In this document: one piece after another, positions 1 to 11,340 of the stretch | Layout: each line of letters begins with the position of its first letter | Numbering within the stretch: position 1 is the stretch's first letter | Virus record (IMG/VR): IMGVR_UViG_3300029647_000018 | Length of the DNA stretch: 11,340 bases | Source: a virus | Lineage: Duplodnaviria; Heunggongvirae; Uroviricota; Caudoviricetes | Reading direction: 5' to 3' (one strand) | Translations under genes and position numbers: made by a program | The notes under the pieces: model-generated | What the model saw: the letters and a program-made list of their open reading frames with translations, nothing else | Database searches by the model: none | What the model was told of the DNA's origin: nothing

Positions 1-77
1 AAAAACGGTTCTGTGAAAGTGACACGAACCGATCTCCATCGATGTTACTCACCGATCTCCTTCACGGTAATACGCAC
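1..77. repeat. Left copy of a perfect inverted repeat (exact reverse complement of 11256..11332); begins at window base 1, so true length may exceed 77 bp
   Basis: Direct comparison: reverse complement of 11256..11332 equals 1..77 base for base; identity breaks at 78 versus 11255. Contains two 10-bp direct repeats ACCGATCTCC (28..37, 51..60) around an ATCGAT palindrome (38..43). Confidence 0.95.
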
Positions 78-319
78 TTATGGCAGTGAATGAAATACGC
101 ATCGCGGATAACAGCGCGTTTTGTCGCTTCCGGCCACTTATCATCCCAGCGGTCAACCGAAAATGACCACGCCAGCCACGGCAGCAGATTTGCCGGACAG
201 GTATCCGGGTTCCACAGCTCACGAATACTGACCGGCGTTTTTTCAATTTCCGCACAGGCTTTTGCGGCGGCGACTTCAAGCGGTGATGAGCCGGTCGGCA
301 GCAGTCGCGAATCACTCAT
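62..319 (-). pseudogene. I: Truncated baseplate protein gpI-like: about 81 native residues then CVLP-stop supplied by the inverted repeat (P2 gpI is about 176 aa)
   Basis: ORF starts MSDSRLLPTGSSPLEV..., matching my recollection of the P2 gpI N-terminus; ATG at 317..319 overlaps J stop (312..314). The last 4 codons and the stop (62..76) lie inside repeat 1..77. Immediately downstream of J as in P2. Confidence 0.8.
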
Positions 320-1220
320 CCGAGCCTCCCGTCACGACGCGGTATTCAGTACAGAAAGACGCCTGCGTATTGTTGAGCACGATGTCGGCCAGTGGTGCGG
401 CCAGCTCGACACGCTGCACGCCTTCCACATGCAAAGCGGCATAAATGGCAGACAGACGGATGTCGCGCCCCAGCCGGTGCTGTGCCGTGATGTACGCTTC
501 CAGTTTTTTCACGGCAGCAGCGCGGATGGGTTCGCTTTCGGGGCCAGGGTAAAGGTAAAGCGTGGCATTTATCTGGTATTCAACAATGGCGGCAGACTGC
601 ACGGTCACGCGGTCGGCCACCGGCCTGACGTCCTCGCCATTAAGGGCGTTACGCACCACAGCCAGCAGGTCTTCGGATGCGACGCCGTTATTTTCACGTG
701 ACAGCACAGAGATAGTAACGCAGGCCGGAGACGGACTGGTGACAGAAATATCGGCGACACGCCCGTCAGCACTGCGACCATGATACTGATAGGCACCCAC
801 CGACCCGGCGACGCTTAAACCTTCAAACGCCTGCTGAATACGCAACCGATAATCGGTGTCAGATTCCATCACTGCCGGTGTCGGCGGGATGGTCGAATCG
901 TCTGCCGGGGTGATAGTCAGGCGCGTGGTGTTGTAATTGGCACCAATCACATCAAGGTCATTACCGGCGGCACAGGCCAGCATCACCGCCCGTGCGGCCT
1001 CATTCACACGCTGACGCCAGATAAGCTCACGATAAGCATTTTCCTCCAGCAGCTTGACGAGAGGCTCGGATTCCAGCGTCAGGGTACGGGCGACCGCCTC
1101 CTGCTGGTCTTCCGGGTAAAGGGAAATCAGTGTCGCCTTGCGTTCGGCGAGAATGGTTTCAAAGTCCAGCTCCTCGACCACATCCGGTGCGGGTAGCTGG
1201 TTCAGGTCGATAATCGGCAT
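312..1220 (-). CDS. J: Baseplate assembly protein gpJ (baseplate wedge), 302 aa
   Basis: 302-aa ORF MPIIDLNQLPAPDVVEELDFE..., same length as P2 gpJ; position between W and I as in P2. Confidence 0.92.
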   Translation of the reverse strand: MPIIDLNQLPAPDVVEELDFETILAERKATLISLYPEDQQEAVARTLTLESEPLVKLLEENAYRELIWRQRVNEAARAVMLACAAGNDLDVIGANYNTTRLTITPADDSTIPPTPAVMESDTDYRLRIQQAFEGLSVAGSVGAYQYHGRSADGRVADISVTSPSPACVTISVLSRENNGVASEDLLAVVRNALNGEDVRPVADRVTVQSAAIVEYQINATLYLYPGPESEPIRAAAVKKLEAYITAQHRLGRDIRLSAIYAALHVEGVQRVELAAPLADIVLNNTQASFCTEYRVVTGGSDE

Positions 1221-1224
1221 GGTT

Positions 1225-1572
1225 TCAACTCACAGGGATGGTTAACGAAAGTGGCTGGCCGGTGTCGTTGTGCTGGCCGGTTAACGTGACCGTCATTCGC
1301 CCGTCAAAACTGCGCGCCGTAGTGACGGATGACAGGGTGACGCGGGGTTCCCATTTCAGCACCGCCATGTAACAGGCGACCTTAATCTGCAACTCAAGCG
1401 CCTGGGTCTGCGGCTGGTCAATCATTGATGCCAGCAACGAGCCGTAATCACGACGCATCACCCGTGAGCCGACCGGTGTGCGCAGGATATCGCCGATACT
1501 CTGGCTGATATGCTCAAGGTCAGTGACAGTCAGGCCATCACTGCGATTCATTCCGAGATAACGTGCTGTCAT
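1225..1572 (-). CDS. W: Baseplate protein gpW (gp25-like), 115 aa
   Basis: 115-aa ORF, same length as P2 gpW; start overlaps V stop as ATGA (1569..1572); flanked by V and J. Confidence 0.9.
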   Translation of the reverse strand: MTARYLGMNRSDGLTVTDLEHISQSIGDILRTPVGSRVMRRDYGSLLASMIDQPQTQALELQIKVACYMAVLKWEPRVTLSSVTTARSFDGRMTVTLTGQHNDTGQPLSLTIPVS

Positions 1573-2204
1573 AGAGGACTCCCGGTTGTGCCGCCGCTGT
1601 CTCCTGGGTGTTTGTGGGTATGCAGTACCTTACCGTTTGATGAGAGTTCACCGCCGGTGTGTTCAATGTTGCCGCGCATCGTCCCGCCCTTCTGCACTTC
1701 CAGCGTGCCGGTAATCAGCCTGTTGGTGCAGACCACCTCCGGTGTGTCCAGGGTGACGCGGGTTGATGCTTTCACCATGACCACCGGCACCGTGGCAGTA
1801 ACAGAATCAGAAGCCGTCACGCTGACCGTTTTAATTCCGCTTACCGTGAGTGCACTGGTTTCGGGTTCATATTCAATCACCGCTCCGTCAGGGAAACGGA
1901 TATGCAGGGCATCCGCCGACGCAGACGGCGCGGGGTTATCGCCGGAATAAATCCCCGGCAGAACGAACGCCGTGTCGAGTTCACCGCCCACGGCCAGAAT
2001 CAGCACCTGCTCCCCCACGGAAGGTGCCCACCATGTGCGCGAACGACCGGCACGATGGGTCAGCCACTGAAGCCAGTCAGTGCACATGCCGCCGGTCTGC
2101 ACACGGCAGCGACCGGCGTTAAGGTCGGTTTCGACGACAAGGCCGGTGCGGATCATGTTGCGCAGTGCGCGCGCGAGTTCCTGAATATTTGCGAGAGTGT
2201 TCAT
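1569..2204 (-). CDS. V: Baseplate spike/hub protein gpV, 211 aa
   Basis: 211-aa ORF MNTLANIQELARALRNMIRTG..., same length as P2 gpV; first gene after the S-V intergenic gap. Confidence 0.92.
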   Translation of the reverse strand: MNTLANIQELARALRNMIRTGLVVETDLNAGRCRVQTGGMCTDWLQWLTHRAGRSRTWWAPSVGEQVLILAVGGELDTAFVLPGIYSGDNPAPSASADALHIRFPDGAVIEYEPETSALTVSGIKTVSVTASDSVTATVPVVMVKASTRVTLDTPEVVCTNRLITGTLEVQKGGTMRGNIEHTGGELSSNGKVLHTHKHPGDSGGTTGSPL

Positions 2205-2270
2205 AACGGGAAGGATGCCGCCGGGTCATACCGGCGGCAATGTGACGATGAGGTGTCGGGAATGGCACAA
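2205..2270 (-). promoter_or_regulatory. S-V intergenic region; expected location of the Ogr-dependent late promoter for the V-W-J-I operon; contains a GC-rich hairpin (2217..2238)
   Basis: P2 has a late promoter upstream of V (established knowledge). In the sequence I see only a 66-bp gap and the dyad GCCGCCGG-gtcata-CCGGCGGC; no exact TGT-N12-ACA element found (nearest is TGT-N10-ACA at 2254..2269). Confidence 0.3.
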
Positions 2271-2723
2271 CTAACGGTCGAGGTGAGCCAGGATAATCTC
2301 TTCAATCATCTGCACATCCTCACCGGTAAAGCCGAGCAGAGGACGCGCCGGATAATCAATTTTCTTACCGTCTTTCCGGGTTTCTTCCGACAGACCGAAC
2401 TGATGCACGCTGGCGATTTTCGGTGACTTCCCGCCGTAAAATTCCATTGATGCCTGTTCAGGGCTGGCGCGGATATGCAAAAAACGACTGGTGATAAGTT
2501 TCGCAAACATTTTTCGCTTAACGCGACCGGTCTTTTTTCTGGCGCTCTGCTGCTGACGTGGCGCGTAGGGTGTGCCGTCCGGGGCTTTCTGAGCCATCAC
2601 CCGGCGCTGCTGACTCTGCCGCAGACGTTTCGCCAGTTCGGCACTCAGTCGCCGACGCCCTGACGGTGACAGCGATTCAGTCAGTCCGGCCAGCCGGTCT
2701 TCAAAACGCTTAAACTCATTCAT
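2271..2723 (-). CDS. S: Tail completion protein gpS, 150 aa
   Basis: 150-aa ORF, same length as P2 gpS; start (2721..2723) overlaps R stop (2716..2718). Confidence 0.9.
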   Translation of the reverse strand: MNEFKRFEDRLAGLTESLSPSGRRRLSAELAKRLRQSQQRRVMAQKAPDGTPYAPRQQQSARKKTGRVKRKMFAKLITSRFLHIRASPEQASMEFYGGKSPKIASVHQFGLSEETRKDGKKIDYPARPLLGFTGEDVQMIEEIILAHLDR

Positions 2724-3186
2724 CCCACTTGCTCACCAGTTCGCCATTGATATAAAGCTCCATCGGGCGGGTGACCGGCTCCGGCGGCGGGGGTTCCGGA
2801 ATATTCTTCACATGCAGTGCGCCGTCAACCTCACTGACCAGCGTGCGCTCGGTCAGCATCAGGCTGATGCTGATATCAAAGCTGCTGTCATTGTTGATGT
2901 CTGCATAAAACGTGAAGCCCTTTTTCTGGCCTTCGTCGGTGGTCATGATGTCGGGCTGATTTTCCCGCAGCCACGCCAGCACCGGCACGATGAGCAGGTC
3001 AAAATCACCGGTAAAGTCGGTCACAATGACATTGAGCGTGTAACGCTTTTCGAATGACAGCGACGCCGCCAGTGTGGAGGCAATACTCCCGTTATCCACG
3101 AATATCCGCAGCATCTCTGGACTGGTTTTCAACACCGTGACGGCATCAGTCAGCGCCCTGCGCAGGCTGTCGGGTTTGAGCATCAT
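2716..3186 (-). CDS. R: Tail completion protein gpR (155-156 aa; start may be the second ATG at 3181..3183)
   Basis: ORF MMLKPDSLRRALTDAV...; P2 gpR is 155 aa; tandem ATG ATG at 3181..3186. Confidence 0.88.
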   Translation of the reverse strand: MMLKPDSLRRALTDAVTVLKTSPEMLRIFVDNGSIASTLAASLSFEKRYTLNVIVTDFTGDFDLLIVPVLAWLRENQPDIMTTDEGQKKGFTFYADINNDSSFDISISLMLTERTLVSEVDGALHVKNIPEPPPPEPVTRPMELYINGELVSKWDE

Positions 3187-3436
3187 TTTCGTCCTGACAG
3201 TGTTTAATCATTTTTACCTGGCTGGCACAGCGTGCCAGCGCGTCCTCAAGCTGCCGGATATCGGCACTTAAATCGCCGTTCTTCTGCGGGTCACTGCCCG
3301 GCATCGGGCAAAGACTCACTTTCGGGCAGGCGTTGTGGACAATCACTGGCGTCGGTGCAGGCGGGGCGCTGGTGCAACCGGCGCACAGCATCAGGCAGGT
3401 CAGCACCGTACCAGCGGCGAAAATCCTCGTTTTCAT
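3146..3436 (-). CDS. lysC: LysC, Rz1-like outer-membrane lipoprotein spanin (o-spanin), 96 aa, nested out of frame in lysB and running into R
   Basis: Internal ATG at 3434..3436 in an alternative frame of lysB gives MKTRIFAAGTVLTCLMLCAGCTSAPPAPTP...: signal-peptide-like segment with Cys-containing lipobox-like motif and a Pro-rich stretch. 96 aa equals the P2 LysC size. Confidence 0.75.
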   Translation of the reverse strand: MKTRIFAAGTVLTCLMLCAGCTSAPPAPTPVIVHNACPKVSLCPMPGSDPQKNGDLSADIRQLEDALARCASQVKMIKHCQDENDAQTRQPAQGAD

Positions 3437-3716
3437 TAAGTAACCTCGTGATGGTTTTCTCGCGCTGTGCTTCACGCTTCGCAGCGTTCTCCAGCTCCTG
3501 ACGCAGAGCCACCTGCGCCAGCTCGTTTTTGTCTGCTCTGGTGAGCGCAACATGAAGCTGATTTTTCAGCATGGTGATGGTCGTCTGCTGTTCACTGGCG
3601 ACGTTGTTCGCCCTGTCCAGCGAGGCGCGCAGGCTGGCATTTTTATGTTTCACCAGAAACAGACCGGCCACCGCCAGCGATAACAACACGACCAGCACAG
3701 TCATCAGCTTTGACAT
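3291..3716 (-). CDS. lysB: LysB, Rz-like inner-membrane spanin (i-spanin), 141 aa
   Basis: 141-aa ORF with N-terminal hydrophobic anchor MSKLMTVLVVLLSLAVAGLFLV followed by a charged, coiled-coil-like region; same size as P2 LysB. Confidence 0.88.
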   Translation of the reverse strand: MSKLMTVLVVLLSLAVAGLFLVKHKNASLRASLDRANNVASEQQTTITMLKNQLHVALTRADKNELAQVALRQELENAAKREAQREKTITRLLNENEDFRRWYGADLPDAVRRLHQRPACTDASDCPQRLPESESLPDAGQ

Positions 3717-4129
3717 GGTTCCCGCCCCTCAAAACGCTGACGGCAGGCCGTACGTATCAGCCGGAAGAACAGCGACGCCACGAGATAAATCAGCGCGGTA
3801 AAAATCCACCCGGCAGCGACCAGCGAGATAAACGTCGTCACCATCACCACCAGAGCCGCCGCCCGTCTGCGCCACGGCACCGGCTGCAAAAACAGCGACG
3901 CGACAATCTTCACGGCCAGCGATTCCGGCGGCAGCTCCCGCCCGTAGCGTTCCAGCACATACTCCGTGGTATACACGCCGACACCACCGGCAACCACACA
4001 GATAACCGTCGCCAGAATCGCCCAGGCGGCGACAAAATTGACGGCCACGCTCTGCGGGTAAATCAGGGACAGTGCCAGCATCAGCGCCAGCGACACGTTC
4101 AGCATCAGTGAAAGGGATAATTTCTTCAT
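3704..4129 (-). CDS. lysA: LysA, multi-pass membrane lysis-timing protein, 141 aa
   Basis: 141-aa ORF with 3-4 hydrophobic helices; position between K and lysB; P2 LysA is 141 aa; GGAG 9 nt upstream of ATG. Confidence 0.85.
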   Translation of the reverse strand: MKKLSLSLMLNVSLALMLALSLIYPQSVAVNFVAAWAILATVICVVAGGVGVYTTEYVLERYGRELPPESLAVKIVASLFLQPVPWRRRAAALVVMVTTFISLVAAGWIFTALIYLVASLFFRLIRTACRQRFEGREPCQS

Positions 4130-4143
4130 GGTGTTTACTCCGT

Positions 4144-4641
4144 TTAAGCCGGTACGCCGCCAGCGGTACGCCAGACGGTGACCAGTTTTTCCAGTGAATG
4201 CTCACGCTGACCGTAACCGGCTCCCGGCAGGGACGCCCAGATATTGCGACAGCGTGAAATGGCGCGCTCAATGCGTCCCGCCCGGATGTCATCCAGTGCA
4301 CCGCGTTCGCGGATCAACTGAATGGCAAGTCTGTCCTGTGACAACGGACTGAAATCCGGCAGGGCAAGCTGTTTGCGGTAATGCGGCCAGAACAGGTAAA
4401 GCTGCTGATAGCGACCGGAGGCCGTGGATTTTTCACCGCGACGGTTAAACACCTTCGCCGGTCGGCCATGCGCGAACGGGTGGTCACTGTAGTCAGTGAA
4501 AATTTCCGGCTTCCCGTCCAGTCCGGTGACTATCACGTCATAGCCCCGGTTTTTCGTCAGCGGATGATTCGCCGTCCCTTCGGACACGGCCAGCATGTCG
4601 AGAAAGGCCGCGATATTCTGATGCGTGTTAATTACCGGCAT
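4144..4641 (-). CDS. K: Endolysin gpK (lysozyme-like), 165 aa
   Basis: 165-aa ORF MPVINTHQNIAAFLDMLAVSEGT... with lysozyme-like E...D...T N-terminal motif; start overlaps Y stop (TAATG at 4639..4643). Confidence 0.9.
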   Translation of the reverse strand: MPVINTHQNIAAFLDMLAVSEGTANHPLTKNRGYDVIVTGLDGKPEIFTDYSDHPFAHGRPAKVFNRRGEKSTASGRYQQLYLFWPHYRKQLALPDFSPLSQDRLAIQLIRERGALDDIRAGRIERAISRCRNIWASLPGAGYGQREHSLEKLVTVWRTAGGVPA

Positions 4642-4922
4642 TACGGTTTCCCCCTGCCCTTAAAACGGCGCTGAATGGCAATCTCAATCACCTGATAACC
4701 GGCGATACCCAGCATGGAGCCGATACCGCACACCGCAGGCAGTGACAGGTCAGGAAACTGCACCAGAACAACACCGGCAACCATCGAGACAAAACCACCG
4801 AGCAACATGCGCCCGATAAACAGACGCGGGGTGATGGGTTCACCACCGGCAAGCACCTTGCCGACAACAATCAGCACCCCAATCATGAAAAGCGACAGGA
4901 CGCTTTTTTCTTCTGCTGTCAT
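4641..4922 (-). CDS. Y: Holin gpY, 93 aa
   Basis: 93-aa ORF with hydrophobic transmembrane segments and charged C-terminus; directly upstream of the endolysin; same size as P2 gpY. Confidence 0.9.
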   Translation of the reverse strand: MTAEEKSVLSLFMIGVLIVVGKVLAGGEPITPRLFIGRMLLGGFVSMVAGVVLVQFPDLSLPAVCGIGSMLGIAGYQVIEIAIQRRFKGRGKP

Positions 4923-4925
4923 GCG

Positions 4926-5129
4926 TTACTCCCACAGATTGACAGTTTCAGCCACGGGCGCGGCCTGAACGTCGGGCAGTTCGACGGCGGTGCCGTGTGG
5001 CAGCACCGCACCCAGTTCAGCCAGTCCCGGATTTGCGGCGAGCACGGTCTCAACCACGCCCTCAGTGCGCCCGTAATACCGGACACAAATGGCGTCGAGC
5101 GTGTCGCCCTGTAGCGCAAAGGTCTTCAT
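4926..5129 (-). CDS. X: Tail protein gpX (small LysM-like protein), 67 aa
   Basis: Internal start MKTFALQGDTLDAICVRYYG... gives 67 aa (P2 gpX size); ATG (5127..5129) overlaps L stop (5129..5131) as ATGA. The track's 90-aa version is an upstream extension. Confidence 0.85.
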   Translation of the reverse strand: MKTFALQGDTLDAICVRYYGRTEGVVETVLAANPGLAELGAVLPHGTAVELPDVQAAPVAETVNLWE

Positions 5130-5638
5130 CAGATTTGACTCACGATGCAGCGCGGCTTGTCCTGGATACGCGCCACCGCCCAGCGCATATCCCGCCACAG
5201 TTCATCAATGGTGCTGTCAATGCTGTCAGCCTTCTTGTCACCTTTCGCACTGGCATCCACGCCGCGATAACGCTCATAAAGCGACGCGGTCGCCATCGCA
5301 CACACGGCGCGCTCGTAGTAAAAAACTTTGATGCTTTCACCGTCGATGTCGTCCGCCGGGACGTCCGCCAGACGCGTAAAACCGGCAGTAATTTTCTGTT
5401 CGCGGTACTCGTACAGCTCCGCATTCGTTTCAGCCATGCCTGACTTGATGGCCTCACGCAGACGGGCGGGGGCGACGGTCTGCTCAAGGCGCATACGTTC
5501 CCGGACGCGCTTCGGGTCGATATCGGGAAAAAAGAACGTGTTTTTAATCACCGGCTCGTCGCCTGCCGGTTGCGGGATGACCACCGTACCCTCACCGGAC
5601 ACGGGAGCCTCCTTTCGCGGAATAATCAGCGTCATCAT
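5129..5638 (-). CDS. L: Head completion/stabilisation protein gpL, 169 aa
   Basis: Start at tandem MM (5633..5638) preceded by GAGGTGG gives 169 aa (P2 gpL size), MMTLIIPRKEAPVSGEG...; the 189-aa track ORF is an upstream extension. Confidence 0.88.
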   Translation of the reverse strand: MMTLIIPRKEAPVSGEGTVVIPQPAGDEPVIKNTFFFPDIDPKRVRERMRLEQTVAPARLREAIKSGMAETNAELYEYREQKITAGFTRLADVPADDIDGESIKVFYYERAVCAMATASLYERYRGVDASAKGDKKADSIDSTIDELWRDMRWAVARIQDKPRCIVSQI

Positions 5639-5737
5639 GACCACCTCTGAAAAGTCGGGCGGTGGACGCCGGTGCAGTGTCAGATGATTCACCCTCACTG
5701 ACCGGCGTGCCGCCCTGGCGCGGGGCGCATTCGGTTG

Positions 5738-6481
5738 TTAACTGGCTTTCTTTTTCGGGCGTCCACGTTTTGCCGGTGTCACGCTCCGGGTCTTACGCGG
5801 GGCGCGGGTGGCCGCTTTGGGTTGTGGCTCCGGCTTCGGTTTCAGCTCCCGCTCCAGTCGTTCAATCTCTTTTTTGACGCCTGCCTGACAGTCGAGCTGT
5901 GTCGCACGTTGCAGGTGCGCCAGTGCACCTGCGGCATCACCAGCGTCACGCAGAAACAGACCGGTGATTTTGTGCAGCTTTGCGCGCACTTCATCAGGCA
6001 TGTCAGCCGTGGCGGTCAGTTCAAGGGTGTCCGTCAGCAGGCGGGTATCCACGGATTCACCGGCAGCGTGAGCGCGCATGGCCGCGAGCGCGACCTCCTC
6101 GGTGAACATGTACGGCGGGGTGCGGCGGTGTTTACCCGGCATGGTCAGACCGTACTTCAGGGCATAACGGGCAATCTCCAGCGCACCGGCAATATCGCCG
6201 GTATCCAGACGCCACAGCATGACCGTCATCAGAATGTCATCCTGTGCACCTTTGCCCTGCTCCAGCACGCCGTTCACCCACGGCAACCAGAACGGCAACA
6301 GTTCGCGTTTTTTCGCGGCCTTAAGCTCTTTTGAATAAATCGCTTTCAGTGTGCGCTGGTCTGCGGCCAGCTTGACCAGCATCTGCTCATAGACAGTTGC
6401 ATGTCGCAGCGGGGCGGCTTCCCGCTGCGCGGTCATCGCTGCCGAGACCCGCATCATGTGGCGCTGTGCGGGACTCGTCAT
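5738..6481 (-). CDS. M: Terminase endonuclease (small) subunit gpM, 247 aa
   Basis: 247-aa ORF (P2 gpM size) with a very basic C-terminal tail ...TPAKRGRPKKKAS; immediately downstream of N with a 3-nt spacer. Confidence 0.9.
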   Translation of the reverse strand: MTSPAQRHMMRVSAAMTAQREAAPLRHATVYEQMLVKLAADQRTLKAIYSKELKAAKKRELLPFWLPWVNGVLEQGKGAQDDILMTVMLWRLDTGDIAGALEIARYALKYGLTMPGKHRRTPPYMFTEEVALAAMRAHAAGESVDTRLLTDTLELTATADMPDEVRAKLHKITGLFLRDAGDAAGALAHLQRATQLDCQAGVKKEIERLERELKPKPEPQPKAATRAPRKTRSVTPAKRGRPKKKAS

Positions 6482-6484
6482 CGG

Positions 6485-7558
6485 TTACGCTCCCGGCTCT
6501 GCGGTCGCCTTAGCAGGTGTGGAGAAATCACCGACCTTAATTTTTTCCACCAGACAACCGGCTGCGTAGTCTTCCACTACGTAATCAATGTTCATTGACT
6601 CGTAGTTCTCCACGCGGTCGAGTTTCGGGTTTTCCACAATCACGCGGCGATGGCTGTCATCCATGTAGTAGATGGACAGGTTTTCCAGCTTCGTGATGAG
6701 CATCGCATCCGCCGGGAAGTACGGGACGCGTACCGCTGGCAGGTTGCCGATGCGTTTCTGGCTGATGATGACGTCAGCGGCCAGCATCTCGCTGTTGTCC
6801 TGCTCCTTGTTGACGATGGGGAAATACTTGTCCGCCAGTAGCTGACGCCCCACAATCACCACAAGGTCAGGGTCTTCCTGATACCACGGTTCAATCAGGT
6901 TGTTGGTCGCATCCATCACCAGTGCATCAAGGCTGGCATAATCACCGCCCTTACCCACGCGGATAACCTCAGAGGTGGTGCGGCCTTCCTCGTCAGTGAC
7001 CTTGCTCATCACGCGCGCCGGGGCTTCATTGCGGTATTTCTGCAGCCAGCCGACCGCCACATCCTGCAGCATCGGATTGCTGTTGCGGTCAGAGGTTTCG
7101 GCACGCTTCACGCCGTTAAAACCGGCCATGATGAAATCAAGGGACTGGCGTTTGATAATGGCGTTACGGATACGGAGCTGGAAATCCTGATAACGCGCCC
7201 ACAGGTCAAGCGTTTTGTAGCGGATATAAAAATCGAAGTTAATCTGGTCGCATTCGTACTTACTGGACGCCAGCTTCGAGAAGTCCTTCGGCTGACGCTC
7301 GGTGCCACCGGCGGTGTCGGTGGTGCTGGCGATGGAGCCGGTGACACCGATACCAATTTTTTCCCCTTTCATTTCGCTGACCGGCACAATGTTGATGCGG
7401 GTCAGGAAATCAGAGGACTCCTGCATGGTGTTCATCAGGGTCTGGGTGACCGACGGTTCAACGGTGAATTTTTTCGACACATCACCGGCGTCGATGCCGT
7501 TCAGTTCGGCAACACGGGACAGGTAAGCATTAAATTTAAAGCGGGTTTCCTGGCGCAT
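6485..7558 (-). CDS. N: Major capsid protein gpN, 357 aa
   Basis: 357-aa ORF MRQETRFKFNAYLSRVAELNGI..., same length as P2 gpN; AGGA 7 nt upstream of ATG. Confidence 0.95.
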   Translation of the reverse strand: MRQETRFKFNAYLSRVAELNGIDAGDVSKKFTVEPSVTQTLMNTMQESSDFLTRINIVPVSEMKGEKIGIGVTGSIASTTDTAGGTERQPKDFSKLASSKYECDQINFDFYIRYKTLDLWARYQDFQLRIRNAIIKRQSLDFIMAGFNGVKRAETSDRNSNPMLQDVAVGWLQKYRNEAPARVMSKVTDEEGRTTSEVIRVGKGGDYASLDALVMDATNNLIEPWYQEDPDLVVIVGRQLLADKYFPIVNKEQDNSEMLAADVIISQKRIGNLPAVRVPYFPADAMLITKLENLSIYYMDDSHRRVIVENPKLDRVENYESMNIDYVVEDYAAGCLVEKIKVGDFSTPAKATAEPGA

Positions 7559-7616
7559 AGTTTTTCCTGAAATTAAGTGTTAATCGTGAAGGTTTTCCCG
7601 GACTGACTGACGCCGA

Positions 7617-8471
7617 TCAGCAGTTCGTCATCAGGGCGTCACCGCCACCGCCGGTGGCCTTGCTGCGGCGCTGCTGGGTCAGACTTTCGGTGTGGTCGAG
7701 ACTGTTTTTCAGGCGGGTGAATGCCTGGCTGGTTTCATCCGCCCTGTCAGTCACATCCTGCTTAAGTGCGGAAAAGGCGTTTTCCATCTCAGCGAGGCGC
7801 TGCTCAGTGGCGCTCAGTTTTTCCTGCACATGTTCAGCAACAGCGGTCACCGCTTCATGCACGTCATTCAGACGGGCGTCATCGCTGGCCTGTTTGCGGC
7901 CAAAAATGGATTTCACCTTTTCGGTCAGGGCGGTGAACACGGTTTCAGGCAGGTCTTCAAATTCCAGCTCAACGGGCGTTGCCACTGAAATCAGATTTTC
8001 AGGGCTTAATTTGAAGCGGTTCAGAGGGTTGTGTTTTGCCGTGCGGCAGAATTCCAGGTATTCCGTGCCGAGGCTTGCCGGGTCATCGGTGACGGCCAGC
8101 CCCACCAGATAACATTTGCCGGTGTTGGCAAAGTTCGGCTGAATTTCCATTGAGGTGTAGACCTTCTGCGCGGCCTTGTTCATCGCGATAAGGTCATCGG
8201 TCGGGGTGATTTTCGCAAACAGCGCCCATTTGCCTTTCAGCGCCGAATCATCGTCAATCTTTTCAGCCTTCAGTTCGACCACATCGCCATAACGCTTAAA
8301 AATACCGTCAGGCAGGATGCCGCGCAGATGTTCCAGGTTAATGCGGCAACCATAGACACGCGGGTCAAAGGTTTCGGCCATTTCCTGAATATCCTGCGCA
8401 CTGATGACACGCCCGTCACAGGTGTCACCCTCAACGCCGATACGAAAGAATTTTGAGACTTTTTTTGCCAT
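7617..8471 (-). CDS. O: Capsid scaffolding protein gpO with N-terminal serine protease domain, 284 aa
   Basis: Start at MAKKVSKFFRIGVEGDT... (ATG 8469..8471) gives 284 aa (P2 gpO size). Residues D19, H48 and S107 are present at the positions I recall as the P2 gpO catalytic triad. Confidence 0.9.
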   Translation of the reverse strand: MAKKVSKFFRIGVEGDTCDGRVISAQDIQEMAETFDPRVYGCRINLEHLRGILPDGIFKRYGDVVELKAEKIDDDSALKGKWALFAKITPTDDLIAMNKAAQKVYTSMEIQPNFANTGKCYLVGLAVTDDPASLGTEYLEFCRTAKHNPLNRFKLSPENLISVATPVELEFEDLPETVFTALTEKVKSIFGRKQASDDARLNDVHEAVTAVAEHVQEKLSATEQRLAEMENAFSALKQDVTDRADETSQAFTRLKNSLDHTESLTQQRRSKATGGGGDALMTNC

Positions 8472-8644
8472 TGTCAGGAGTCCTGAATAGTGATTAGAGG
8501 AGTCACATGTCGGCATCAGTTTCCCGACGATGCGCATCCTCCGCCATCAGTCCCGGATGGCTTATCACTGACACAACAGCACCTTAGCGAATCGCGGGGC
8601 GCGACTCAGTAGCCTTGCCGTGTATTCATCACGGCGAGGTATTC
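8472..8644. promoter_or_regulatory. Divergent O/P intergenic region; expected site of the two divergent Ogr-dependent late promoters
   Basis: 173-bp non-coding gap between divergent operons, as in P2. Seen in sequence: imperfect dyad TGG-N12-ACA (8558..8575), direct repeat CATCAGT (8514..8520, 8545..8551), small hairpin 8509..8528. Exact promoter elements not verified. Confidence 0.5.
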
Positions 8645-10417
8645 ATGACCATCACCACAGACACCACTCTTTTGCACGACCCGCGTCGTCAGGCGGCGCT
8701 GCTGTACTGGCAGGGGTTTTCCGTGCCGCAGATTGCCGCCATGTTGCAGATGAAACGCCCGACGGTGCAGAGCTGGAAACAGCGCGACGGCTGGGACAGC
8801 GTTGCCCCCATCAGCCGTGTCGAAATGAGTCTGGAAGCGCGGCTGACCCAGCTCATTATCAAACCGCAGAAAACCGGCGGTGACTTCAAGGAAATTGACC
8901 TGCTCGGACGCCAGATTGAACGACTGGCACGGGTAAACCGCTACAGCCAGACCGGCAACGAGGCAGACCTTAATCCGAACGTCGCTAACCGCAACAAAGG
9001 CGGGCGTCGCAAACCGAAAAAGAATTTTTTCAGTGACGAGGCTATCGAAAAGCTGGAGCAGATTTTCTTTGAGCAGTCTTTCGACTATCAGTTGCACTGG
9101 TATCGCGCCGGGCTTGAGCACCGCATCCGCGATATCCTGAAATCCCGCCAGATTGGCGCGACGTTTTATTTTTCCCGCGAGGCGCTGCTGCGCGCCCTGA
9201 AAACAGGTCATAACCAGATTTTTCTGTCGGCCAGTAAAACGCAGGCGTATGTATTCCGTGAATACATCATCGCCTTTGCCCGTCTGGTTGACGTTGACCT
9301 GACCGGTGACCCGATTGTCCTGGGCAATAACGGCGCAAAACTGATTTTTCTCGGCACCAACTCCAACACCGCGCAGAGCCATAACGGCGACCTGTACGTC
9401 GATGAGATTTTCTGGATCCCGAATTTTCAGGTACTGCGTAAGGTGGCATCAGGTATGGCCTCACAGAGTCACCTGCGCTCGACCTATTTCTCCACCCCGT
9501 CCACGCTGGCGCACGACGCCTATCCGTTCTGGTCCGGTGAACTGTTTAACCGGGGACGCGCCAGCGCCGCCGAACGCGTGGAAATCGACGTCAGTCATAA
9601 CGCCCTTGCCGGTGGGCTTCTCTGTGCGGACGGCCAGTGGCGGCAGATTGTCACCATTGAGGACGCCCTGAAAGGTGGCTGCACGCTGTTCGACATTGAG
9701 CAGCTCAAACGCGAAAACAGCGCCGACGATTTTAAAAACCTGTTCATGTGTGAATTTGTTGACGACAAGGCGTCGGTGTTCCCGTTCGAGGAGCTGCAAC
9801 GCTGCATGGTCGACACGCTGGAAGAATGGGAAGACTATGCGCCGTTTGCCACCAATCCGTTCGGCTCACGTCCGGTATGGATTGGTTACGACCCGTCACA
9901 CCGTGGCGACAGCGCCGGATGCGTGGTACTGGCACCGCCGGTGGTGGCCGGTGGCAAATTCAGAATACTTGAGCGTCACCAGTGGAAAGGCATGGACTTT
10001 GCCACCCAGGCGGAATCCATCCGCAAACTCACCGAAAAATATAACGTTGAATACATCGGGATTGATGCCACCGGCCTCGGTGTCGGCGTGTTCCAGCTCG
10101 TGCGCTCGTTCTATCCCGCCGCGCGCGATATCCGCTACACGCCGGAAATGAAAACCGCAATGGTGCTCAAGGCAAAAGACGTCATCCGCCGTGGCTGTCT
10201 GGAATATGACGTCAGCGCCACCGACATCACCAGCTCGTTTATGGCTATCCGCAAGACCATGACCAGCAGCGGACGCAGCGCCACCTATGAGGCCAGCCGC
10301 AGCGAGGAAGCCAGCCACGCCGACCTCGCCTGGGCGACCATGCACGCCCTGTTAAATGAGCCACTCACCGCCGGTATCAGCACTCCGCTGACATCCACCA
10401 TTCTGGAGTTTTACTGA
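8645..10417 (+). CDS. P: Terminase ATPase (large) subunit gpP, 590 aa
   Basis: Start MTITTDTTLLHDPRRQAALLYWQGF... (ATG 8645, GAGGT upstream) gives 590 aa (P2 gpP size); candidate Walker A-like FLSASKT and Walker B-like LYVDE motifs; stop overlaps Q start (TGATG 10415..10419). Confidence 0.93.
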   Translation: MTITTDTTLLHDPRRQAALLYWQGFSVPQIAAMLQMKRPTVQSWKQRDGWDSVAPISRVEMSLEARLTQLIIKPQKTGGDFKEIDLLGRQIERLARVNRYSQTGNEADLNPNVANRNKGGRRKPKKNFFSDEAIEKLEQIFFEQSFDYQLHWYRAGLEHRIRDILKSRQIGATFYFSREALLRALKTGHNQIFLSASKTQAYVFREYIIAFARLVDVDLTGDPIVLGNNGAKLIFLGTNSNTAQSHNGDLYVDEIFWIPNFQVLRKVASGMASQSHLRSTYFSTPSTLAHDAYPFWSGELFNRGRASAAERVEIDVSHNALAGGLLCADGQWRQIVTIEDALKGGCTLFDIEQLKRENSADDFKNLFMCEFVDDKASVFPFEELQRCMVDTLEEWEDYAPFATNPFGSRPVWIGYDPSHRGDSAGCVVLAPPVVAGGKFRILERHQWKGMDFATQAESIRKLTEKYNVEYIGIDATGLGVGVFQLVRSFYPAARDIRYTPEMKTAMVLKAKDVIRRGCLEYDVSATDITSSFMAIRKTMTSSGRSATYEASRSEEASHADLAWATMHALLNEPLTAGISTPLTSTILEFY

Positions 10418-11271
10418 TGAGCAAGAAAAAAGGGAAAACACCGCAACCTGCGGCAAAAACAATCACCGCCAGCGCCCCGAAAATGGAGGCATTCACCTTT
10501 GGTGAGCCGGTGCCGGTACTCGACCGCCGTGACATTCTGGATTACGTCGAGTGCATCAGTAACGGCAGATGGTATGAGCCACCGGTCAGCTTTACCGGTC
10601 TGGCAAAAAGCCTGCGTGCTGCCGTACATCACAGCTCACCGATTTACGTCAAACGTAATATTCTGGCTTCAACGTTTATTCCGCACCCGTGGCTTTCCCA
10701 GCAGGATTTCAGCCGCTTTGTGCTGGATTTTCTGGTGTTCGGTAATGCGTTTCTGGAAAAGCGCTACAGCACCACCGGTAAGGTCATCAGACTGGAAACC
10801 TCACCGGCAAAATATACCCGCCGTGGTGTTGAGGAGGATGTTTACTGGTGGGTGCCGTCCTTCAACGAGCCGACACCTTTCGCGCCCGGCTCCGTGTTTC
10901 ACCTGCTGGAGCCGGATATTAATCAGGAGCTGTACGGCCTGCCGGAATATCTCAGCGCCCTTAATTCTGCCTGGCTGAATGAATCAGCTACGCTGTTCCG
11001 CCGCAAGTATTACGAAAATGGCGCACATGCCGGATACATCATGTACGTCACCGATGCCGTGCAGGATCGCAACGATATCGAAATGCTTCGCGAAAACATG
11101 GTTAAGTCGAAAGGCCGCAACAACTTTAAAAACCTGTTTCTCTATGCCCCGCAGGGGAAAGCTGACGGCATTAAAATTATCCCACTCAGTGAAGTGGCAA
11201 CGAAGGACGATTTTTTTAATATCAAAAAAGCCAGCGCCGCTGACCTGCTGGACGCGTGCGTATTACCGTGA
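10417..11271 (+). pseudogene. Q: Truncated portal protein gpQ-like: about 280 native residues then CVLP-stop from the inverted repeat (P2 gpQ is about 344 aa)
   Basis: ORF MSKKKGKTPQPAAKTITASAPKMEAF... matches my recollection of the P2 portal N-terminus; the reading frame enters repeat 11256..11332 and stops at 11269..11271. Confidence 0.8.
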
Positions 11272-11332
11272 AGGAGATCGGTGAGTAACATCGATGGAGA
11301 TCGGTTCGTGTCACTTTCACAGAACCGTTTTT
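11256..11332. repeat. Right copy of the perfect inverted repeat (reverse complement of 1..77)
   Basis: Exact 77/77 reverse-complement identity with 1..77; 8 further bases (11333..11340, aaattacc) have no counterpart inside the window because the left copy starts at base 1. Confidence 0.95.
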
Positions 11333-11340
11333 AAATTACC

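Follow-up and report, generated by a model that had tools for sequence, protein, structure and literature searches.

Two copies of ISEc12 very probably bound the late-gene segment of a P2-like prophage

The late-gene block and the repeat at its ends

The window, that is, the whole stretch of viral DNA analysed here (11,340 nt), consists almost entirely of a P2-like late-gene block that extends from position 78 to position 11255 and uses both strands. Truncated gene I (I'), J, W, V, S, R, lysC, lysB, lysA, K, Y, X, L, M, N, and O are encoded on the minus strand, while P and truncated gene Q (Q') are encoded on the plus strand. Pfam families were assigned gene by gene on a 100 % identical contig. 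Peduovirus phages, including S164, pro483, and L-413C, match 99 % of the block's length at 97.5-97.8 % identity. Both of its outermost genes are incomplete. The truncated gene I (baseplate/tail protein I; 62..319, minus strand) comprises 81 P2-like codons followed by four codons supplied by the IS (CVLP) and a stop codon, and the truncated portal gene Q (10417..11271, plus strand) comprises 280 P2-like codons, again followed by CVLP and a stop. These translations agree with the preliminary description of the window, which had placed the breakpoints at about codon 81 of I and about codon 280 of Q.

The same description had reported an exact 77-bp inverted repeat with a sharp inner boundary, and direct comparison confirmed both features: positions 1-77 are 100 % reverse-complementary to positions 11256-11332, and the match breaks at 78 and 11255. 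The chance expectation for such an inverted pair is approximately 3e-39, and the runner-up inverted repeat within the window covers 37 nt at 70 %. It is therefore correct, as had been claimed, that the phage block has one foreign sequence at both of its ends, in opposite orientations.

Identity of the repeat and extent of its two arms

The repeat is the end of the insertion sequence ISEc12 that lies next to istB (right inverted repeat, IRR); ISEc12 is a 2,581-bp element of the IS21 family. Both arms of the window are 100 % identical to annotated ISEc12 copies. Positions 1-76 (minus strand, read inward from the terminus) match the first 76 nt of complete 2,581-bp copies, and the second copy, inverted with respect to the first, contributes the 84 nt of its IRR end at 11257..11340 (plus strand). 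Together with the flanking G, the right arm is 100 % identical to 1,924 complete-E. coli-genome records. In annotated copies, this terminus lies directly beside the istB and istA genes of "IS21-like element ISEc12", and RefSeq names the products at other copies ISEc12 IstA and ISEc12 IstB. Comparison of the 77-mer extended by the adjoining aaattacc with host genomes, a check proposed at the outset, returned ISEc12 copies in E. coli. This 85-mer is present in 1,798 of 5,426 complete E. coli genomes (median 3 copies, maximum 14), on chromosomes as well as plasmids and within unrelated genes.

The element itself can be followed beyond the window. In the Logan contig L007 and in the finished chromosome GCA_054792675.1 (L047), the same junction in gene I runs on into a 248-aa IstB_IS21 protein and then a 513-aa rve/Mu-transpos_C_2 protein, so that the sequence past the left junction encodes istB and then istA. 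The gene pair of the IS21 family, with istA specifying a DDE transposase (rve domain) and istB an AAA+ helper (IstB_IS21), is thus found outside the window. The copy at the I junction differs from the copy in ypfH at 1 of 2,581 nt. Complete copies elsewhere place the start of the element at TGCGTATTACC, and its termini read TGCGTATT...AATACGCA, i.e. they have 5'-TG...CA-3' ends. A group II intron was also considered, as the initial GTGCG of the arm resembles an intron 5' end; it was ruled out by the istA/istB pair and by the terminus lying at TGCG.

A sequence scan of the right end located two copies of the 10-nt motif GGAGATCGGT within 28..60 on the minus strand (28-37 and 51-60) and, correspondingly, at 11273-11282 and 11296-11305. 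These are probably multipartite IstA-binding repeats (R1/R2) of the type seen at IS21-family ends, by analogy with the terminal repeats of the family, which consist of multiple repeats of such kind (PMC10122671). The target duplication is 5 bp both for ISEc12 (PMC10711316) and for the IS21 family (PMC10122671), and a 5-bp duplication was found at 15 of 17 reconstructed ISEc12 sites.

Knowledge of the element refines the extent of the repeat. The 77 matching bases stand, but the IS itself spans positions 1-76 at the left end (76 nt) and positions 11257-11340 at the right end (84 nt). The G at 77 and 11256 is the last base of the target site at each insertion and does not belong to the IS. It matches on both sides because ISEc12 targets mostly end in G, as is the case at 11 of the 17 sites. 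The additional aaattacc of the right arm continues the same IS by eight bases. The repeat length had been called a lower bound, and the rest of the left IS does lie beyond window base 1. The unequal IS share at the two ends, 76 versus 84 nt, was weighed against the reading of two insertions. A 114-bp mini-ISEc12, tried as a graph branch behind the eight extra bases, was rejected, since it diverges at IS nucleotide 99 and not at 84.

Two insertion events, in I and then in Q

The copy in gene I arose by simple insertion, which duplicated the 5 bp ATAAG (target-site copy at 77..81, minus strand). In the finished chromosome GCA_054792675.1, which is 99.991 % identical to window positions 1-11256 (one mismatch), the I junction is identical to that of the window, and the 2,581-bp IS has ATAAG on either side. 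Excision of the IS together with one ATAAG copy restores a gene I of 203 aa. Beyond the IS, the prophage continues with the rest of I, followed by H, G, an invertase, and FI. The reciprocal product 'I (MKIRNK...), predicted beforehand, was found exactly. The exact 85-aa I' fusion product (Pfam Tail_P2_I) occurs on at least 24 contigs (27 index blocks). A 44-mer from the left junction had no match in the contig collections for genomes, metagenomes, and viruses.

In the case of gene Q, the exact 284-aa Q' fusion product (Pfam Phage_portal) occurs on only 5 contigs, all of 10-20 kb. The reciprocal 'Q product of 70 aa (MKIRNAHRIPF...) was predicted from the IRL end, ACGCG, and the rest of Q. A homology search with this prediction did not find it among the cluster representatives returned, but an exact look-up did match a sequence in a public protein collection. 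Its three sources and its contig count (3) are the same as those of the Q' fusion. This exact product, along with analogous insertions in the finished genomes BCE-1 and STE15, indicates that the Q copy is likewise a simple insertion, with the 5-bp duplication ACGCG (11252..11256, plus strand). Thus, ATAAG is observed at I, while ACGCG at Q is read from the reciprocal product. The Q insertion is a separate and later event, because the finished sister chromosome carries the I junction together with an intact Q of 344 aa.

The reading that best accounts for these data, with a probability of roughly 0.9, is a P2-like prophage late segment bounded by two separately inserted ISEc12 copies, one in I and one in Q. 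ISEc12, with its IstA transposase and IstB helper ATPase, would first have entered the baseplate/tail gene I, duplicating 5 bp. Afterwards, in a sublineage, a second ISEc12 would have entered the portal gene Q by ordinary transposition, again with a 5-bp duplication. The ist genes lie antisense to the interrupted gene at both sites. I and Q occupy opposite strands, so that, with ist antisense in both, the two copies are mutually inverted and their istB-proximal ends face the block. The prophage is defective, since both insertions inactivate essential virion genes. The option of two inverted IS copies, named in the preliminary description, is therefore the right one, and the element is ISEc12.

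The window most likely represents a complete short-read contig that runs out inside a multi-copy repeat. It would hold no more than 76 and 84 nt of the IS because the assembler failed to place this multi-copy element, and the block looks bracketed for no other reason than that the contig stops at both repeats. A MEGAHIT k127 contig of the same block measures 11,432 bp, i.e. 11,178 + 2 × 127. Contigs with perfect inverted repeats at their ends are classically suspected of being foldback or chimeric assembly artefacts, and an engineered construct had also been proposed. The repeat is, however, a known terminus of a natural multi-copy IS. Furthermore, assemblies from ENA, Logan, JGI, and NCBI, produced by differing assemblers, show the junctions again: the I junction is found on at least 24 contigs and in a 5.15-Mb NCBI chromosome contig, and the Q junction on 5 contigs. 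The chance of an artefact or a construct is consequently negligible.

It is also very unlikely that two strains of a mixed sample, one with I::ISEc12 and the other with Q::ISEc12, were merged by the assembler. Carrier samples include ERR912060, human gut metagenomes are represented among them at least once, and strains with the I insertion alone do exist. However, intact I or Q alleles at appreciable coverage would branch the assembly graph, and the contig would halt before the IS, whereas the window reaches 76 and 84 nt into it and the 100 % identical k127 contig reaches 126 nt at each end. Given the ancestral status of the I junction and the 100 % identity of the block, carriers of the Q insertion are expected to have this junction too. 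Both copies thus appear to lie on one chromosome in the source sample.

RecA-dependent inversion can act on two inverted 2.6-kb repeats spaced 11.2 kb apart. ISEc12 copies could therefore have undergone homologous recombination, either as an 11.2-kb inversion or as an exchange with a third copy, leaving one or both junctions out of their native context. A further point in favor of this comes from L007, where I'-IS is followed by chromosomal yciE rather than by the remainder of I; this could reflect IS-IS recombination in that sample, ERR13961122. In the finished sister genome, however, the I copy sits in its native context. The yciE sequence in L007 has a length of exactly 30 nt (k-1 in a k=31 graph), and a search of 5,426 complete genomes found this junction in none of them; a real rearrangement is consequently no more likely than a graph artefact or a minor subpopulation. 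An inversion would also leave all four junction sequences unchanged and would be invisible in short-read contigs. On balance, recombination is an unlikely origin of the arrangement.

Another option raised earlier was a composite transposon in which two ISEc12 copies move the P2 late block as a unit. One IS does occur twice and flanks a passenger segment. Such a unit should be enclosed by one duplication and appear in varied genomic contexts, but each IS has its own 5-bp target duplication, the prophage continues past the IS, and the block is seen only in its native P2-like prophage context. This makes a composite transposon extremely improbable, and the same evidence speaks against a dedicated invertible cassette.

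Some observations concern target choice. Three independent ISEc12 insertions in the portal gene Q lie at nt 840, 841, and 852, within 12 bp and in the same orientation. Across P2-like prophage genes, ist is antisense to the target gene in all eight of the ISEc12 insertions seen. A general orientation bias of the element was rejected, as six further sites comprise three sense and three antisense insertions. An IR-like target motif was also discarded: TGCGTATTTCAT is present 25 nt away from the insertion in I, yet the association is not general, with 3 occurrences against 1.25 expected, a level reached in 64 of 500 shuffles. A regional target preference of IstB/IstA, e.g. for local DNA structure, might make insertion non-random and repeatedly disable P2-type prophages; this suggestion is tentative and rather doubtful.

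Comparison with known systems and significance

IS insertion is an ordinary route of prophage decay. As in IS-riddled cryptic or defective prophages, essential morphogenesis genes of a resident prophage (portal, baseplate) are knocked out here, and no substantive difference from IS-mediated prophage decay is apparent. The decay is recent, because the remaining late region is 97-98 % identical to viable P2-like phages.

The closest parallel for the element is tssM::ISEc12, a marker insertion of E. coli ST131 clade C (PMC10711316). It shares with the present case the identical terminus, the 5-bp duplication, the interruption of a gene, and inheritance as a lineage marker. As with ISEc12 elsewhere, a full copy of 2,581 bp with istA and istB is found at the same junction. 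Unlike tssM::ISEc12, the insertions described here target the P2 genes I and Q, two copies reside in one prophage, and only 76 and 84 nt of them fall within the window.

The invertible segments of phages (Mu G, P1 C, and the tail-fibre shufflons of P2-like phages) resemble the window in that a phage segment is bracketed by inverted repeats. The prophage family also has an invertase beside its tail-fibre genes, as in Hin/Gin/Cin-type systems. In contrast to such segments, the repeats here are IS ends within I and Q rather than short crossover sites in tail-fibre genes. The only prophage invertase locus (L047 17802-18395) lies outside the window and is unrelated to the repeats.

For annotation, the repeat should be labeled as ISEc12 termini, while I and Q should be marked as pseudogenes, disrupted by an IS, in a defective P2-like prophage. 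When a short-read contig carries a perfect inverted repeat at its ends, it usually terminates in two inverted copies of a repeat. Outside annotation, the importance of the finding is small. Both junction sequences serve as lineage markers, with the I insertion being older than the Q insertion, and the apparent hotspot in gene Q could interest students of target choice in the IS21 family.

Identity of the repeated sequence

Self-comparison of the window confirmed the repeat reported in the preliminary description: bases 1-77 and 11256-11332 are exact reverse complements of each other, with an abrupt end to the identity at 78 versus 11255. For 11.3 kb, the expectation of a perfect 77-nt inverted repeat by chance is about 3e-39, and the second-best inverted repeat within the window is 37 nt long with 70 % identity. 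Across 99 % of its length, the interior (78-11255) aligns with P2-like (Peduovirus) phages at 97.5-97.8 % identity. The minus strand encodes I', J, W, V, S, R, lysC, lysB, lysA, K, Y, X, L, M, N and O, and the plus strand encodes P and Q', where I' and Q' denote the 5' parts of interrupted genes. The inner edges of the repeat lie inside genes I and Q, as had been described: translation gives 81 P2-like codons of I and 280 of Q, each followed by CVLP-stop. Elsewhere in the interior, an additional ORF of 246-357 aa, on the reverse strand and without a Pfam match, lies between S and V in many close relatives (e.g., L033 10988-11773 and L035 11019-12092). This ORF is absent from the window's phage (at about 2204-2271), so that the S-V gap is a variable moron slot.

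The right arm with its 8 trailing bases (85 nt) is matched, practically without mismatches, in 1,798 of 5,426 complete E. coli genomes, at a median of 3 and a maximum of 14 copies. The copies lie on chromosomes and plasmids, within such unrelated genes as psiA, cbtA, ypfH, traX and an integrase gene. Annotation, where present, places istB (helper ATPase) and istA (transposase) of "IS21-like element ISEc12" immediately adjacent to the 85-mer. The foreign sequence bordering the block on both sides in opposite orientation is consequently identified as the istB-proximal end of this element. Complete copies are 2,581 bp long, start with TGCGTATTACC..., end with ...GAAAATACGCA and are flanked by a 5-bp target duplication, as published for ISEc12 in tssM of ST131 (PMC10711316) and for the IS21 family generally (PMC10122671). 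The motif GGAGATCGGT, present twice in the window arms, fits the multipartite terminal repeats of that family (PMC10122671). Every testable family-defining feature of IS21/ISEc12 was found, the ist genes and far ends in full copies at the same junction, outside the window.

The element ends seen in complete copies set the limits of ISEc12 proper at 1-76 and 11257-11340. The G at 77/11256 is therefore a target base outside the IS; its presence on both sides reflects the usual final G of ISEc12 target duplications. Among 17 target sites reconstructed from the comparison loci (L001-L059), the last base is G in 11 and the penultimate in 12, with C/A at the first two positions, giving a weak consensus of MCNGG. 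Two of these sites are CCAGG (Dcm). All duplications are 5 bp long, except one of 6 and one of 8.

A 114-bp miniature ISEc12 also occurs inside psiA of F-type plasmids (L002 4002-4115, plasmid pM217_FII). Its right-end portion (99 nt) meets a left-end portion (25 nt) across a 10-nt microhomology (TGATCTCCTT). The miniature element is flanked by the 5-bp duplication ACCGG and probably accounts for many of the plasmid matches to the 85-mer.

Insertions in genes I and Q

At the left junction, the insertion is simple. It yields an 85-aa I' fusion protein specific to this junction, and at least 24 contigs encode that protein, in assemblies of independent origin (ENA, Logan, JGI and NCBI). The I junction recurs unchanged in GCA_054792675.1, a 5.15-Mb NCBI chromosome contig that differs from window 1-11256 by a single mismatch, at 8265 (99.991 % identity). 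Its IS at this point is complete (2,581 bp) with ATAAG on each flank, and a 203-aa gene I is regained when the IS is removed together with one ATAAG. Beyond the IS follow the rest of I, H, G, the tail-fibre invertase and FI. The predicted product of the 3' remainder of I (MKIRNKGTIGA...) is also present in a public protein collection.

Gene Q is uninterrupted (344 aa) in GCA_054792675.1, and the Q' fusion protein was found on only 5 contigs, all of 10-20 kb, compared with at least 24 for I'. Under an assumed 5-bp duplication ACGCG, joining the left end of the IS, ACGCG and the remaining part of Q at the reciprocal junction gives a predicted product of 70 aa, MKIRNAHRIPFQLMG..., and this exact protein is present in a public collection. 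Its sources (JGI/IMG, Logan and ENA) and contig count (3) coincide with those of the Q' fusion. The insertion in Q is therefore a later, separate event; its predicted reciprocal junction is strongly inferred from the exact protein.

The insertions in I and Q have the same codon phase, which is why I' and Q' both end in the IS-encoded CVLP-stop. An ATG (CATGAAAATACGCA) at the left end of ISEc12 lies in frame with the remainders of both genes (L047 14696-14720 for I; predicted for Q), and gene callers consequently predict MKIRN-fused ORFs for the 3' fragments.

The recurrence of the junctions across assemblers and in a finished chromosome excludes a foldback artefact or an engineered construct, both proposed earlier. 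Mobilization of the block as a composite transposon, a further earlier proposal, is not supported, as the two IS copies are flanked by separate duplications and the block remains in prophage context. Alternatively, the I and Q junctions could derive from different strains in a mixture. This is unlikely, because the window and a 100 % identical k127 contig enter the IS at both ends, and intact alleles at appreciable coverage would keep contigs from doing so.

Two finished genomes carry simple ISEc12 insertions in the portal gene Q, oriented as in the window: BCE-1 at nt 841 (L003 7313-7318, duplication CGCGC) and STE15 at nt 852 (L058 3524-3529, duplication TCCCC). Together with the window's insertion at nt 840 (11252-11257, ACGCG), these are three independent events within 12 bp, on different phage backbones, and the cluster looks like a local insertion hotspot. 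About 14 codons downstream, three short proteins retrieved with the 3' product of Q (P0017, P0018 and P0022) have unrelated N-termini fused to one point of the Q C-terminus (before KPENVGSL), which suggests that other elements may also insert or recombine there.

Orientation of the copies and contig ends

The 5' part of the interrupted gene adjoins the istB-proximal end in either insertion, which makes the ist genes antisense to that gene. Because I lies on the minus and Q on the plus strand, the copies are inverted and both face the block with the same end. An inverted arrangement is expected for half of all pairs of independent insertions and thus requires no special mechanism. ISEc12 insertions are frequent in P2-like prophages, where they interrupt I, Q, O, H and the gene for a moron ATPase, and the ist genes are antisense in 8 of 8 cases (L003, L004, L024, L029, L030, L047, L053 and L058). 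There is no general orientation bias, as six other sites (L052-L057) split into 3 sense and 3 antisense.

The window stops 76 nt (left) and 84 nt (right) into the IS. A MEGAHIT k127 contig of the same block measures 11,432 bp (11,178 + 2x127), and Logan (k=31) contigs stop after 29 nt of the IS. Read most simply, the window is probably a whole short-read contig that breaks off at an unresolvable multi-copy repeat, although a search for the source contig gave no match. The 8-nt asymmetry matches neither one k-mer size nor the branch point of the miniature element.

The 11.2-kb block could be reversed by recombination between its inverted 2.6-kb flanking copies. Since this would leave the four junction sequences unchanged, short-read contigs neither show nor exclude such an inversion. 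In one Logan contig (ERR13961122_43425; L007 2938-2967), J'-I'-ISEc12 is followed by 30 nt of chromosomal yciE with no rest of gene I. Since this flank is exactly k-1 nt long and the join occurs in none of the complete E. coli genomes, the contig reflects either a de Bruijn graph effect or a minor IS-IS recombinant in that sample.

Significance for the prophage

The preliminary interpretation was correct in its most mundane option, inverted IS copies, and not in the artefact, engineered or composite-transposon options. The finding is of low interest and already known in kind: a known element of the IS21 family, acting in a known way (gene interruption that duplicates 5 bp of target) in the known setting of prophage decay. 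The cluster in Q is the sole mildly interesting by-product. On the basis of established P2 biology, this prophage, having lost the portal protein and baseplate protein I, is predicted to be unable to make virions.
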